A stretch of DNA of 64,000 nt from Escherichia phage MirsaeidiM_Esher1. Within the stretch, counting starts at the first letter, position 1. Each line of letters starts with the position of its first letter. Shown here piece after piece: positions 4,918 through 9,034 of the stretch. Both the position numbers and the translations under genes were made by a program. The stretch lies in sequence record PQ438048.1; one strand, given 5' to 3'. The notes beneath the pieces were generated by a model, which worked only from the letters and a program-made list of their open reading frames with translations, was not told the origin of the DNA and made no database searches.

Positions 4918-5274
4918 ATGAGTAGTATTGATCAGAACATTTGTTACCAACCTCTTACCTGGATTGGTGAGGGCCATTATGCGCAACGTGTTATCGTCTG
5001 TGCGGCGAATAAGTATATTTTAAATAATGGTGAAGAGTTAATTATTCCTTGTGTTCGACATGCAAATCCTGTATTATCTGCACAATTGAATGTATTGAAA
5101 GAAGCAGGTGTGCTTGATAAAGTGCATTGTCTTCCAAACAATCAAGGTTTTATTGATCAATACTACAATTGGTGGAGTCGTGAAGATGCATACATCATTG
5201 CAAAACACGCAGACCAGATTGACTACGAACGTAATGGTCATGATCGTGACCTATTTAGCGAGGGATTATACTAA
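4918..5274 (+). CDS. hypothetical protein (118 aa)
   Basis: AAGGAG RBS; stop overlaps next start (TAATG). Confidence 0.65.
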   Translation: MSSIDQNICYQPLTWIGEGHYAQRVIVCAANKYILNNGEELIIPCVRHANPVLSAQLNVLKEAGVLDKVHCLPNNQGFIDQYYNWWSREDAYIIAKHADQIDYERNGHDRDLFSEGLY

Positions 5275-5825
5275 TGTTTATTACAAGTGATTTGCATTTT
5301 ATGCACAAACGTATACGAGAGTTTGCTCCTGAATATCGACCGTGGGAAGATATGGACCACATGACGGAAGCACTGATCGAAGCATGGAATAAATGCGCTA
5401 CGAGTCCAGGTGTCAAGATGTGGCATTTGGGTGACTTCTGTTTCGGGACTGAAGAAGATACCCGTAAGATTGCTTCCCGCCTCCAAGGGGATATCACTTA
5501 TTGTGTTGGGAACCATGATTACAGCAAACACCGAGAAGTGCTTGCAGAGTATGGAGAAGTGGTGTATTATGACGAAGTGAAATATCAGAAGCTGTTCTTC
5601 GTCTTAAGCCATTACCCTATGGCCTCCTGGAATAAACAAGGTCGTGGATCAATCATGCTACACGGGCATTCCCACGGATCTTTCCCTGATGAAGCTTATG
5701 GTAAAATGTTAGATGTGGGTTGGGATGCACACGGAAAAATCTTACATTTTGATGAGATAATTTCTATGATGAGTAAACGAGATATCGTAACTGTAGACCA
5801 TCACAAAATAATCAAAGGAGAGTAA
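5274..5825 (+). CDS. calcineurin-like metallophosphoesterase
   Basis: Motifs DLHF, GDFCFG, GNHD, GHSHG in canonical order. Confidence 0.8.
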   Translation: MFITSDLHFMHKRIREFAPEYRPWEDMDHMTEALIEAWNKCATSPGVKMWHLGDFCFGTEEDTRKIASRLQGDITYCVGNHDYSKHREVLAEYGEVVYYDEVKYQKLFFVLSHYPMASWNKQGRGSIMLHGHSHGSFPDEAYGKMLDVGWDAHGKILHFDEIISMMSKRDIVTVDHHKIIKGE

Positions 5826-5826
5826 T

Positions 5827-6759
5827 GTGGCTAAATTTAATTGCGACGATTTAGTTGAAAAAGGTTTAGTTCATAAGAAAACATATAAAGAAGGAGAGTA
5901 TTCTGGTCTATCTGTTCTTAAGTATAAGAACAAAGTTTTCTGGGATAACCTATGGAACATTGATTCTCGTCTTCTAGAATGTCGCGGAATCGTTGTTGAC
6001 GCTGATGACAATGTTGTTATTTGGCCTTTCACTAAGATTTTTAATCGTTTTGAGAATGGCACAGATCTACCAGCGGATGAATTTGTAGATGTTGTTCGTA
6101 AAGTAAATGGTTTTATGGCCTCTGTAGGTGTATATAAAGGTCAACTTATCGTATCGACAACAGGAAGCCTTGAATCAGATTTTGCAAGTATTGCAAAGAA
6201 TCGTATTGTTTCAGAGTGCGATGACATAGAACATTTCATCAAATGGACAGAGAGTGCAAAAGCAACTTTCCTTTTTGAAATCTGTGATCCTTCTGATCCG
6301 CATATTGTCGAAGAAGAACCAGGTGCATACTTAATTGGTGCCAGAATTCAAAATCCTGACGGGACAAGTTTTATGTTACCTGAAGGTGCTCTTGATGGAA
6401 TTGCTTCTGTCACCAAATTTAAGCGTCCTGAAGTTCATCCAATGGTTAAGTTTTCAGATGTTGTTGAAATGTCTAAACATTGTAAACACGAAGGGTTTGT
6501 AGTTCGTGAAACAAACTATCCGTTCAACTTACTTTTAAAAATTAAATCACCACACTATCTTATTAAGAAGTTTCTTATGCGTGGTGGAGATAAAAAGTGG
6601 GATCTGATTTGGGATAATCCAAAAAATGCCAAACAAATTGTTGACGAAGAATATTACGCTTTGTTAGAATGGATTCGAAATAATTTTACGAAGACTCAAT
6701 GGGCTGCTTTAAATCAGCAGGAGCGACGTGAAAAAATAGAAAACTTCTTTGGAGGATAA
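5827..6759 (+). CDS. rnlA: RNA ligase, T4 Rnl1 (RnlA)-like
   Basis: LLECRGIVVD...FTKIFNRFENG...VRKVNGFMASV parallels T4 Rnl1 ALECRGIMFE...MEKFFNLNENP...LTKEDGSLVST (from memory); KxNG nucleotidyltransferase motif I. Confidence 0.75.
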   Translation: MAKFNCDDLVEKGLVHKKTYKEGEYSGLSVLKYKNKVFWDNLWNIDSRLLECRGIVVDADDNVVIWPFTKIFNRFENGTDLPADEFVDVVRKVNGFMASVGVYKGQLIVSTTGSLESDFASIAKNRIVSECDDIEHFIKWTESAKATFLFEICDPSDPHIVEEEPGAYLIGARIQNPDGTSFMLPEGALDGIASVTKFKRPEVHPMVKFSDVVEMSKHCKHEGFVVRETNYPFNLLLKIKSPHYLIKKFLMRGGDKKWDLIWDNPKNAKQIVDEEYYALLEWIRNNFTKTQWAALNQQERREKIENFFGG

Positions 6760-7164
6760 ATGAAACAACTTATCATTTTACGTGGCGTTTCAGGTGCTGG
6801 TAAATCTACGGTAGCAGAAATTATTTCTGAAGGTTATTGGCCTATCTGTGAGGCAGATCAATATCATTACACAGAAAGTGGTGTTTACGATTGGAAGCCA
6901 GAAAATGTAGGTAAAGCACACGCATGGTGTCAGAGTATTGTTCGTGATGCTATGGCATCTAATCTTAACAAGATTATTGTTTCTAACACTTCAACCACAG
7001 AGAAAGAACTTAAACCTTATCTAACTCTTGCTGAAGAGTTTGGTTATCAAGTTATCTCTTTAGTTGTTGAAAATAGGCACGGTAATGATTCAATTCACGA
7101 GGTTCCACAATATATTCGTGATCAGCAAGAGAAACGTCTTCGTGGTTCACTTAAACTTCAATAA
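6760..7164 (+). CDS. P-loop polynucleotide 5'-kinase-like protein (kinase domain only, no HAD phosphatase domain)
   Basis: Walker A GVSGAGKST; KQLIILRGVSGAGKST and IIVSNTSTT resemble T4 Pnk N-terminal domain (from memory). Confidence 0.65.
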   Translation: MKQLIILRGVSGAGKSTVAEIISEGYWPICEADQYHYTESGVYDWKPENVGKAHAWCQSIVRDAMASNLNKIIVSNTSTTEKELKPYLTLAEEFGYQVISLVVENRHGNDSIHEVPQYIRDQQEKRLRGSLKLQ

Positions 7165-7173
7165 GGAGTAATA

Positions 7174-7500
7174 ATGCAGATTTATACAGATGATCGTAAA
7201 TATGAGACAATTTTAGATGAAGATACTGGACGAATTACCGTTCTCCGCCACGGTGAAGAGTGGCGTGATGAAACGGGAGATAATTACATCTTGTCTCTGA
7301 TTCATCTTATTGAACAAATGCGCGATGATTACGCTGAACTCCATTATGAAAATGAGGCGAATAAAGTAAAATTTGAAAATGAGTTAGAAGAGAAAGAATC
7401 TGAAATGGTATATCTAAAAGAAGAGATCTCCCGTTTGGAGGAAGAGATCGATTCTCTTCAAGAAGAGATTTACGAACTCAACAACGAACTGAATGCTTAA
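7174..7500 (+). CDS. coiled-coil protein (108 aa)
   Basis: TAAGGAG RBS; C-terminal heptad-like E/L-rich repeat. Confidence 0.6.
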   Translation: MQIYTDDRKYETILDEDTGRITVLRHGEEWRDETGDNYILSLIHLIEQMRDDYAELHYENEANKVKFENELEEKESEMVYLKEEISRLEEEIDSLQEEIYELNNELNA

Positions 7501-7509
7501 GGAGGGATT

Positions 7510-7701
7510 ATGAAAAAAGATATCGTTGTTGTTGGTTGGCTGACTTGCCCTTGTGGTAGTAATGACATAACTGTAAACACAGAGGGTGATAAAAATTATT
7601 TATTCTACGGGGATAAAATCACTTGCAATACCTGTGGACGTGTCGGTATTATAGAAACCGATGATTGTTGTGCTTTTGAATCTTGGGATGAAGATGAATG
7701 A
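7510..7701 (+). CDS. zinc-ribbon protein (63 aa)
   Basis: CPCG...CNTCG pairs; AAGGAGGG RBS. Confidence 0.6.
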   Translation: MKKDIVVVGWLTCPCGSNDITVNTEGDKNYLFYGDKITCNTCGRVGIIETDDCCAFESWDEDE

Positions 7702-7919
7702 GTACTGCATTTTATGTTCGTAGCGGGGACGAGGATTTTCTAGCTACTTTTGATGACGGTGATCTTGAAGATATGTATGAAGATATGCTTGACTATGCTA
7801 AAGGGCAAGGTTTCACAAGCATTGATTATATGTTGGCAACATCTACAACGTTACTCGACGCAGATTTGGATGAAGTGTGTAACAGATTGAAAATTTCAGT
7901 TTTTAAATGGGAGGACTAA
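7698..7919 (+). CDS. hypothetical acidic protein (73 aa)
   Basis: ATGA overlap with upstream gene. Confidence 0.55.
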   Translation: MSTAFYVRSGDEDFLATFDDGDLEDMYEDMLDYAKGQGFTSIDYMLATSTTLLDADLDEVCNRLKISVFKWED

Positions 7920-9034
7920 TGCAACAAACAAATCAAACGCTGTATGGTAAAGATTCAAAAGGAAAACTTAAACAGTGGACAGTATATACAGATGGTGCAG
8001 TTGTTACTGTAGCTCATGGAAGAGTAGGTGGAAAGATCACAGAAAAATCTTATACAGCAGAAGCAAAAAACATTGGTCGTTCCAATGAAACAACACCGGA
8101 AGAACAAGCTGAACTTGAAGCTTTTGCCAAATGGACAAAACAGTTAAAGAATGGCTATTATAAAACAAAAGAAGAAGCTGAAAACCATGTTCCTTCCACA
8201 CCAATGAAATGCCAGGATTATAAAGATTATCCTGAAAGGGTTGTGTTCCCTGGTTATGCACAATACAAACTGAACGGGTTACGTTCTATGATTAACATGA
8301 AAGGGGAGTGTTTATCAAAAGCTGGGGAAGTGTATAACCTGCCACCTCATTGGAAAGGTATTCCAAACTTTATTAGTGAAGTTGTTGGTCATCCTCTTGA
8401 TGGTGAAGTGTTTGCTGGGTTAGGTGTCCTTAGTCTGCAACAAATTAACAGTGCCTGGAAGAAGCATAATGCAAATACACCTTTGCTGAATTATTACGTA
8501 TACGATATTCCAGTTCCAGGTCTACCGTTTGAAAAACGTGTTGATGCTCTTGCTGCTCTTAAGGCAGTAGTTGAAGATTATGGTCTTGACGAGCTTATTT
8601 GTGTAGTTCATACAGAGTATATTGAAAACCAAGAACAGTTTGATGCTTTCTATGAAAAAGCTTTACTTGAGAAAGCTGAAGGTGTAGTATATCGTAATGC
8701 TCACGGAGTTTACGAATTTGATAAACGTTCTTACGATGTTATTAAACGTAAGCCTCGCCATACCCTTGAAGTTAAAGTAACAAATTCAAAAAGCGATAAA
8801 AATGGCGATGGAGTGTTGACAGGTGAGATGGAAAATGGTAAAGTAGTCGAATTCTTAATGCGTAAAGATGCTCAGGAGACTATCAATTATCGTAAAGCAG
8901 AGAATGCTTCTACCTTGATTAATCAGTTCGTTGAAATAGAGTATGAAGAATTTTCAGATGAAGGTATTCCAACAAAACCTGTTGGTGTTCGTATTCGAGA
9001 AATGATCCCAGGCACTTGGGAACCAGCAGAATAA
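7919..9034 (+). CDS. ligase-like nucleotidyltransferase (KxNG motif), candidate ATP-dependent DNA or RNA ligase
   Basis: Motif I-like YKLNGLR; about 370 aa; start at ATG 7919 after GGGAGG. Confidence 0.5.
   Translation: MQQTNQTLYGKDSKGKLKQWTVYTDGAVVTVAHGRVGGKITEKSYTAEAKNIGRSNETTPEEQAELEAFAKWTKQLKNGYYKTKEEAENHVPSTPMKCQDYKDYPERVVFPGYAQYKLNGLRSMINMKGECLSKAGEVYNLPPHWKGIPNFISEVVGHPLDGEVFAGLGVLSLQQINSAWKKHNANTPLLNYYVYDIPVPGLPFEKRVDALAALKAVVEDYGLDELICVVHTEYIENQEQFDAFYEKALLEKAEGVVYRNAHGVYEFDKRSYDVIKRKPRHTLEVKVTNSKSDKNGDGVLTGEMENGKVVEFLMRKDAQETINYRKAENASTLINQFVEIEYEEFSDEGIPTKPVGVRIREMIPGTWEPAE

Follow-up and report, generated by a model that had tools for sequence, protein, structure and literature searches.

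A candidate heal-and-seal RNA repair cassette of three small, separate proteins in an Escherichia phage

Escherichia phage MirsaeidiM_Esher1 (sequence record PQ438048.1) carries, within the 64,000-nucleotide stretch of DNA analysed here (the window), three adjacent genes for a metallophosphoesterase (MPE), an Rnl1-family RNA ligase and a polynucleotide-kinase-like P-loop kinase. Together with a gene for a cREC protein that lies two open reading frames (ORFs) upstream, they probably form a heal-and-seal RNA repair cassette of separate small proteins, a reading to which we give somewhat more than even weight. A preliminary description of the window had proposed a split RNA end-healing and sealing module, and on homology, motifs and synteny this is the best reading of the three genes. 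The four ORFs which that description listed, a further ligase-like gene downstream being the fourth, are all present on the + strand at the coordinates it gave; the first three are indeed neighbours and fall into the Pfam and PHROG families expected of a phosphoesterase, an RNA ligase and a kinase.

5274-5825, + strand: metallophosphoesterase, 183 amino acids
5827-6759, + strand: Rnl1-family RNA ligase, 310 amino acids, GTG start
6760-7164, + strand: polynucleotide-kinase-like P-loop kinase, 134 amino acids

A single nucleotide separates the MPE stop from the ligase start, and none separates the ligase stop from the kinase start. All three proteins are kept at 39-55% identity in unrelated phages, so the genes are real and not chance ORFs. 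The 4.6 kb around the cassette shows 96-98.6% DNA identity to many GenBank genomes of Phapecoctavirus, a genus of the subfamily Stephanstirmvirinae whose members are phAPEC8-like myoviruses of E. coli with genomes of about 150 kb, and the relatives of the four ORFs are labelled there as ‘phosphoesterase/metallophosphatase’, ‘putative RNA ligase’, ‘ATPase / putative polynucleotide kinase’ and ‘ATP-dependent DNA ligase’. The three proteins have recognisable homologues, their catalytic motifs are intact and the synteny of their genes is conserved.

Cleavage of tRNA by PrrC-type anticodon nucleases, HEPN/Cas13-type enzymes and colicin-type toxins leaves a 2′,3′-cyclic phosphate and a 5′-OH. At such a break, the kinase would transfer a phosphate from a nucleoside triphosphate to the 5′-OH, whilst the MPE, possibly together with cREC, would open and remove the cyclic phosphate to leave a ligatable 3′-OH; the ligase would then adenylylate itself on K92, move the adenosine monophosphate to the 5′-phosphate and seal the break. 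The substrates in this scheme, the division of labour and product chemistry at the 3′ end, and a counter-defence role against PrrC-type nucleases are what we infer from the evidence below.

The ligase product matched the Pfam family RNA_lig_T4_1 (PF09511) at 5e-15, with the profile covered end to end (1-227), and phrog_562, the family of T4 gp63, at 1e-69. When aligned with T4 Rnl1 by BLASTP (2e-5), its LECRG and PxxKxFN motifs and the motif I lysine were found in register. Searching the PDB with the single sequence gave no match and a family profile was needed; built without T4, this profile returned T4 Rnl1 as its only PDB match (1.6e-10), with no sequence-level match to Trl1. The protein had been described beforehand as Rnl1-like, and the ligase lysine on which that description turned is in place, as K92 (in KVNG) aligns with T4 K99 in both BLASTP and MAFFT and is invariant in 60 homologues. 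In a 61-sequence alignment made up of T4 Rnl1 and these homologues, the window ligase shares 10 of 12 active-site residues with T4 Rnl1, and these are invariant throughout the homologues (T4/window: R54/R53, K75/K70, F77/F72, K99/K92, G102/G95, E159/E151, E227/E222, G228/G223, K240/K238 and K242/K240). Apart from R54 and K75, the importance of these residues is reportedly documented in the mutagenesis literature on T4 Rnl1. Motifs III, IV and V, and the residues of the Rnl1-type N-terminal sub-module, are all present, and R54 and K75 have been found essential in T4 Rnl1 (PMC6379707). The protein is proposed to be the sealing enzyme, a member of the Rnl1 family with a short C-terminal helical domain.

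The kinase contains a GVSGAGKST P-loop at residues 9-17 and matched AAA_33 (4e-10), phrog_2071 (3e-56), phrog_505 ‘polynucleotide kinase’ (2e-8) and, by BLASTP, T4 PseT (3e-6). Among the matches listed, its homologues are stand-alone proteins of 130-145 amino acids on phage contigs. Here too a family profile was needed, a single-sequence search of the PDB having given weak, P-loop-only matches. With a 23-sequence profile, the best PDB match was Pnkp1 of the Pnkp1-Rnl-Hen1 complex (1.2e-7), and full-length matches were obtained to T4 Pnk (3e-5, residues 3-131 against 2-144) and to the kinase domain of Clostridium thermocellum Pnkp (CthPnkp; 4gp7, 1e-3); nucleoside and gluconate kinases matched over the P-loop only. 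Its nearest solved relatives are thus RNA-repair polynucleotide kinases and not an unrelated P-loop family, in keeping with the earlier comparison with the kinase half of T4 Pnk. Residues K15/S16 and D33 (T4 D35) are invariant in 23 homologues, T77 (T4 T86) is conserved, and R106, aligned with T4 R122, is invariant. The lack of an accompanying HAD domain, also pointed out in the preliminary description, was borne out: no HAD (DxDxT) phosphatase domain is fused to the 134-amino-acid protein, and no homologue of the T4 Pnk phosphatase half was detectable in the window (best tblastn E=2.1). Its nearest solved relatives and its partnership with an RNA ligase point to the kinase as the healer of the 5′-OH end.

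The MPE matched Pfam Metallophos (2e-5) and phrog_547 ‘phosphoesterase’ (9e-56). Residues D6, H8, G53-D54, G79-N80-H81, H113, G131-H132 and H134 are invariant in 24 homologues and cover all six motifs of a binuclear enzyme (DxH, GDxx, GNH[DE], H, GH and GHxH). In the PDB, its family profile matched Aquifex aq_1665 (1xm7) at 4e-21 and, weakly, GpdQ-type phosphohydrolases. The MPE is a stand-alone enzyme of the aq_1665-like family, and its gene context suggests a putative 2′,3′-cyclic phosphodiesterase and 2′(3′)-phosphatase acting as the 3′-end healer. It had been suggested previously that this protein supplies the 3′-healing activity of bacterial Pnkp; the six motifs and the synteny with the kinase (27 of 45 lineages, see below) favour such a role, drawn from context. 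The MPE lies outside the clade of lambda phosphatase and CthPnkp, so its likeness to bacterial Pnkp is one of functional analogy and not of orthology. In CthPnkp, an MPE-type domain heals the 2′,3′-cyclic ends of tRNA halves (PMC1920235). A second metallophosphoesterase is encoded in the window at 29342-30085 (+ strand; Pfam Metallophos 2.7e-13), and its relatives are labelled NinI/lambda-phosphatase-like Ser/Thr phosphatase. Lambda phosphatase has 2′,3′-cyclic phosphodiesterase activity in vitro, and the product of this second gene could be an alternative 3′-end healer.

That the three genes act together is suggested above all by gene context. This context was assessed in 80 IMG/VR loci carrying a kinase homologue (41-96% identity), each scanned with a hidden Markov model of every family, and a partner was counted when it lay within 8 kb of the kinase on the same strand; collapsing the kinases at 70% identity reduced the sample to 45 lineages. 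An MPE gene accompanies the kinase at 53 loci (27 lineages) and an Rnl1-like ligase gene at 29 (21 lineages), and both are present in 16 lineages. To gauge the background roughly, a control set of 80 loci around the unrelated gene Arn.3 was used, and it yielded the ligase twice, the kinase three times and a strong MPE match (E ~1e-78) three times, and all of the control loci that carried these were Phapecoctavirus-like. Pseudomonas phage phiK7A1 also has the genes in the order MPE-ligase-kinase (39, 46 and 55% identity, respectively), as do two unrelated metagenomic phages (L009 and L010); in one of the latter two, the cassette is followed by genes for a CCA-adding enzyme and for a second RNA ligase, of the PF09414 type. 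In other phages the kinase has a PF09414 RNA ligase, an HD phosphohydrolase or RlaP as its partner, a variety that is the mix-and-match typical of heal-and-seal RNA repair. At one locus (L054, 7962-9254), a single ORF of 431 amino acids fuses the kinase (residues 15-141) to an Rnl1-like ligase (155-425). Conversely, a 153-kb Phapecoctavirus-like contig (L093, 7477-12487) has the array cREC-Arn.3-MPE-DNA ligase-MazG without exactly the RNA ligase and the kinase, a natural loss that fits a dispensable accessory module. The view that this composition is unusual has to be given up, as 615 GenBank records of phages contain the kinase and the neighbourhood has been described for rV5-like phages (PMC9503650). 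A further ORF, of 349 amino acids (L069, 7341-8387), carries the kinase at its C-terminus behind an unidentified N-terminal region of 220 residues.

Several findings weigh against the repair reading. The genes stand in a long, tightly packed array on one strand, so their adjacency in this single genome says little. The protein closest to the MPE in the PDB, aq_1665, is a structural-genomics protein with no assigned function; the MPE family profile gave no match to Pnkp or lambda phosphatase in the PDB at E<=0.1, and there is a weak NCBIfam match to the DNA-ligase-associated nuclease PdeM (E 0.004). In the kinase, T4 R38 is replaced by a near-invariant His36 and T4 R126 by Asp110, in a loop where the alignment is uncertain at this distance. 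Both arginines are said to be essential in T4 Pnk according to the mutagenesis of Wang and Shuman, and with other residues at these positions we infer polynucleotide kinase activity without being assured of it. The ligase clade departs invariantly from T4 Rnl1 at two active-site positions, having Asn94 for D101 and Thr112 for K119. Some 65 residues follow motif V, compared with about 120 in T4 Rnl1, leaving an alignment gap of about 45 residues, and a tblastn search with the T4 Rnl1 C-domain found nothing significant. RNA ligase clades are defined by their C-domains, which separate Rnl1 from Rnl4 and Rnl6, and in T4 it is this domain that gives tRNA specificity (PMC6379707); as a domain of the T4 type is absent, strict membership of Rnl1 fails on that feature and specificity for tRNA is not established. 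Finally, the literature found on these proteins consists of in-silico descriptions, with no biochemical or genetic work.

The surroundings of the cassette contain further genes, of which two that the preliminary description did not mention, those for cREC and Sir2, bear on the mechanism.

4550-4906, + strand: cREC protein, 118 amino acids, PF20274
4918-5274: Arn.3-family ORF, overlapping the MPE start
7907/7919-9034, + strand: ATP-dependent DNA ligase, motif YKLNGLR
9280-10005, + strand: MazG-like nucleotide pyrophosphohydrolase, Pfam PRA-PH, phrog_671
36005-36805, + strand: Sir2-family protein, 266 amino acids, Pfam SIR2

The cREC protein matched PF20274 (cREC_REC) at 3.5e-13, with 50.5 bits against a gathering cutoff of 27, and the residues of its acidic pocket (D8-D9, D52/D54 and T90-S91-N92) are invariant in 12 orthologues. 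Aravind's group, who defined the family, predicted that it processes cyclic phosphates and linked it to RNA ligases (PMC7824862), and the protein encoded here is probably an accessory enzyme that would open the 2′,3′-cyclic phosphate at the 3′ end. GenBank relatives (nepoznato, ESCO25) label the gene ‘putative RNA ligase and tail attachment protein’; the protein has no ligase domain, so this label appears to be a propagated error. The Sir2 protein (Pfam SIR2, 1.4e-20) is encoded 29 kb downstream of the cassette, at the end of the + strand block. Orthologues of it (E 1e-87 to 1e-99) lie directly between the kinase and DNA ligase genes of related phages (L014-L020 and L026), so that in this genus Sir2 seems to have become separated from the cassette, of which it is a possible distal partner. 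Indeed, related phages of 145-148 kb have the array MPE-ligase-cREC-kinase-Sir2-DNA ligase-MazG, with cREC placed between ligase and kinase in L015-L020. In the rV5-like phage PMBT16, Sir2 is found two genes from a 311-amino-acid ORF that is of ligase size and annotated as a hypothetical protein, divergent beside a kinase-phosphoesterase pair. The MazG-like protein (Pfam PRA-PH 2.7e-6) accompanies the module at 9 of the 80 kinase loci, all from a related group of enterobacterial phages, and MazG has been listed as a member of the RNA-repair neighbourhood (PMC9503650); it is possibly a peripheral member here. The ORF at 4918-5274 is a member of the family of T4 ‘Arn.3’, with 1466 phage records, for which no specific linkage to repair genes was found across the 80 Arn.3-centred loci. 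An apparent association of Arn.3 with MPE genes at 10 loci was rejected, as it came from a single phage lineage and from weak MPE matches (E ~1e-6) 4 kb away.

The alternative that survives best keeps RNA repair and changes the chemistry. In a yeast-type Trl1/Tpt1 route, cREC or the MPE would convert the cyclic phosphate to a 3′-OH,2′-PO4 end, the kinase would supply the 5′-PO4, and the ligase would both need the 2′-PO4 and leave it at the junction, from which it would be removed by Sir2, acting as a nicotinamide adenine dinucleotide (NAD)-dependent analogue of Tpt1/KptA, or by the MPE. Such a route has already been proposed (PMC9503650), and we consider it possible, at a good deal less than even weight. 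An AlphaFold model of the ligase (pLDDT 92.9) gave fungal Trl1-LIG and T4 Rnl1 as joint best Foldseek matches, both at E ~1e-12, and with a fold as near to Trl1 as to T4 Rnl1 there are two candidate chemistries for the 3′ end. The motifs also read like those of Trl1, with KVNG for TLKENG in motif I, so that N94 matches Trl1 N150 (Cth), and EGFVVR for EGFVIR in motif IV. The clade-invariant residues H159, K248 and R252 are spaced from motifs III and V approximately as are Trl1 H227, R334 and R337, a tentative correspondence that comes from motif spacing and not from superposition. In Trl1, the motif I Asn contacts a mimic of the required 2′-PO4, and H227, R334 and R337 confer 2′-phosphate specificity (PMC6379707). 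Furthermore, cREC and Sir2 are interleaved with ligase and kinase in the related phages, and a single substitution in the MPE domain of CthPnkp switches its product from a 2′-OH, which T4 Rnl1 seals, to a 2′-PO4, which the yeast ligase seals (PMC1920235). On the other side, the sequence profile of the ligase matches T4 Rnl1 and not Trl1; cREC and Sir2 each lie near the kinase at just 8 of the 80 loci, which for cREC means 3 of the 45 lineages; many phages with neither gene nearby have a ligase of this clade in which those invariant residues are kept; Sir2 is 29 kb away in the present phage; and neither cREC nor this clade of Sir2 has a demonstrated activity. That the ligase clade is a minimal phage relative of fungal Trl1-LIG, needing a 2′-phosphate 3′ end and serving ligation of the yeast type, is put forward as a tentative and rather unlikely proposal.

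The gene at 7919-9034 had been taken for a second RNA-repair ligase, and this assignment was rejected. Its product matched DNA_ligase_A_M (PF01068) at 6e-9, phrog_114 ‘ATP-dependent DNA ligase’ at 1e-74 and NCBIfam PRK09125 at 2.5e-15, and all five of its PDB matches are DNA ligases; motif I reads KLNGLR, with Asn for the usual Asp. It is a canonical ATP-dependent DNA ligase, probably the replication and repair ligase of the phage and outside the module, and both it and the Arn.3 ORF are most likely bystanders. Both phage ligases, the RNA ligase with KVNG and the DNA ligase with KLNGLR, have Asn in place of the usual motif I Asp. The presence of a DNA ligase nevertheless raises the question of DNA-end repair, in which the kinase and the MPE would heal 5′-OH/3′-phosphate DNA breaks for the DNA ligase in the manner of PNKP and the RNA ligase would serve separately. 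A DNA ligase gene lies within 8 kb of the kinase at 15 of 80 loci (9 of 45 lineages), in differing orders in the distant phages phiK7A1, L031, L058, L070 and L071; the MPE has its weak match to the ligase-associated nuclease PdeM; and T4 Pnk also acts on DNA. The kinase is, however, found with an RNA ligase in 21 lineages against 9 for the DNA ligase, it shares a single ORF with an RNA ligase in L054, and it occurs beside the tRNA-specific CCA-adding enzyme and RlaP, whilst the nearness of the DNA ligase may just reflect clustering of genes for nucleic-acid metabolism. DNA-end repair is a very improbable role for the cassette.

A little more improbable still is that no RNA is repaired at all, the kinase acting on nucleosides or nucleotides and the MPE and cREC degrading immune signals derived from cyclic nucleotides or ADP-ribose, so that the genes would counter NAD- or cyclic-nucleotide-based defences. 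Iyer et al. speak only of a ‘nucleotide kinase’ and place cREC in networks of NAD and ADP-ribose (PMC7824862, PMC9503650). The kinase profile touches nicotinamide riboside kinase and gluconate kinases, but these matches cover the P-loop only (residues 4-41), whereas the polynucleotide kinases match over their full length and with better E-values. Genes for a phosphoribosyl-pyrophosphate (PRPP)-synthetase-like protein, NAPRTase and Macro follow the kinase in phiK7A1, yet such a reading would not account for the RNA ligase as a conserved partner. In that phage (L007, 8407-13784), the genes directly after the kinase encode the PRPP-synthetase-like protein, DUF7020, NAPRTase and Macro, which look like a set for NAD reconstitution and ADP-ribose processing beside RNA repair, and an HD_4 domain protein is encoded before the MPE. 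Finally, tail-fibre attachment, the second function of T4 gp63, is scarcely credible as the main role of the ligase gene amid unrelated neighbours: the ligase shares a PHROG with T4 gp63 (‘RNA ligase and tail fiber protein attachment catalyst’), but its gene lies among early/middle genes of nucleic-acid metabolism, all of its catalytic residues are strictly conserved, it is syntenic with end-healing enzymes, and it is missing from the otherwise intact close relative L093.

Read as a heal-and-seal cassette, the three genes resemble several known systems, none of them exactly. One is the pair Pnkp (PseT) and Rnl1 (gp63) with which T4, a phage of the same host genus, counters PrrC; it likewise provides a 5′-kinase, a 3′-end phosphoesterase and an Rnl1-family ligase, and the T4 proteins are detectable homologues of the kinase and ligase described here. 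In T4, however, kinase and HAD (DxDxT) phosphatase are joined in one protein, whereas here the kinase stands alone and an MPE of unrelated fold is the candidate 3′ healer; T4 Rnl1 has the longer, tRNA-specifying C-terminal domain and retains D101 and K119 where the cassette ligase has Asn and Thr; and pseT and rnlA lie ~1.4 kb apart with four genes between them, whereas the three genes of the cassette are contiguous. The Pnkp-Hen1 system of C. thermocellum has the same three activities, including a binuclear MPE as 3′ healer, and its kinase domain is a detectable homologue of the cassette kinase, but in CthPnkp they are fused in one protein, whilst the cassette consists of three proteins in the order MPE-ligase-kinase with an MPE from another, aq_1665-like family. 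The annotation of close relatives shows no Hen1 methyltransferase in the matching region, no direct search for one having been made. The Capnocytophaga Pnkp1-Rnl-Hen1 system (PDB 4xrp; PMC4411300), whose Pnkp1 is the best solved match of the kinase, is also split, with the ligase as a separate protein. The fungal system of Trl1 and Tpt1 differs in that Trl1 is one trifunctional protein (LIG-KIN-CPD) with a CPD of the 2H type and a GTP-dependent kinase, and in that no Tpt1/KptA was identified, for which Sir2 is only a predicted substitute.

The nearest precedent is a sirtuin-centred RNA-repair neighbourhood of medium-sized phages, with Escherichia phage V5 and Proteus phage Mydo as prototypes, that was described by Iyer, Burroughs, Anantharaman and Aravind (Viruses 2022; PMC9503650, section 3.7.3), who predicted the sirtuin to be an NAD-dependent remover of 2′-phosphates akin to KptA/Tpt1. 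Its T4-like ligase, cREC, nucleotide kinase, MazG and calcineurin-like phosphoesterase are all found within 4550-10005 of the window, and its exact array was seen in the related phages L015-L020. The two arrangements differ in that the sirtuin is adjacent there and displaced by 29 kb here, and in that cREC, there between ligase and kinase, lies here upstream of the MPE. The role of the MPE also appears in a different light, as it accompanies the kinase more constantly than any other partner does (27 of 45 lineages, compared with 3 for cREC) and is not an occasional companion. By sequence, then, the cassette is a rearranged member of a system already described in silico (Iyer/Aravind 2021, 2022).

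With its genes already annotated and its neighbourhood already described in silico, the cassette is a modest discovery, and its interest lies mainly in its use as a ready experimental system and in the Trl1-like character of the ligase. Immunity by tRNA cleavage (PrrC, RloC, Cas13, PARIS and HEPN toxins) is recognised as a major arm of bacterial defence. To our knowledge, T4 Pnkp/Rnl1 is the only phage counter-measure of RNA repair that has been established by experiment; the cassette may represent a second solution that is far more widespread and consists of three small, separable proteins; the kinase by itself occurs in over 600 sequenced phages, whose hosts include Escherichia, Pseudomonas, Vibrio, Klebsiella and Acinetobacter. 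Work on it could give the aq_1665-like metallophosphoesterase family a function, show whether cREC and the phage Sir2 clade act on RNA ends, and settle whether a Trl1-like 2′-phosphate route exists in bacteriophages. Were the yeast-type reading true, this would be the first sirtuin to act as an analogue of an RNA 2′-phosphotransferase and the first enzymatic role for cREC. Natural variants that have no ligase and kinase exist, and the cassette could also help to explain differences in host range amongst therapeutic phAPEC8/rV5-like phages.

With regard to its genomic setting, the cassette belongs to the first part of a long run of early/middle genes that share one strand, and the GC skew is positive to ~36 kb. 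The tail of a phage tRNA gene cluster is found 4 kb upstream on the opposite strand (7-788), and an Rfam scan of 1-12000 found tRNAs only. A fourth tRNA, at 7-91 on the - strand, scored 39 bits in Rfam and was not called by ARAGORN; in the matching part of the cluster, close relatives annotate a tRNA-Asn of 85-86 nucleotides adjoining tRNA-Ser. In a scan for promoters and terminators, promoter-like sites occurred at chance level (33 observed against 28.6 expected). A good site is located at 2478-2506 (+), at the start of the + strand block, with a near-consensus sigma-70-like TTGACA, a 17-nucleotide spacer and CATTAT with TG, and the sole convincing intrinsic-terminator-like hairpin is at 10974-10997 (+), after the RdgC gene. 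The genes from ~2770 to 10940 may form one transcription unit; the scan is compatible with a single long unit and uninformative on the cassette itself. PADLOC returned one weak P-loop match for the kinase and none for the other cassette proteins. The ORF at 7174-7500 (+) encodes a coiled-coil protein of 108 amino acids that belongs to phrog_18076 (‘hol-like chemotaxis’), and the label ‘DNA polymerase I’ that some of its GenBank relatives carry is likely to be an annotation error.

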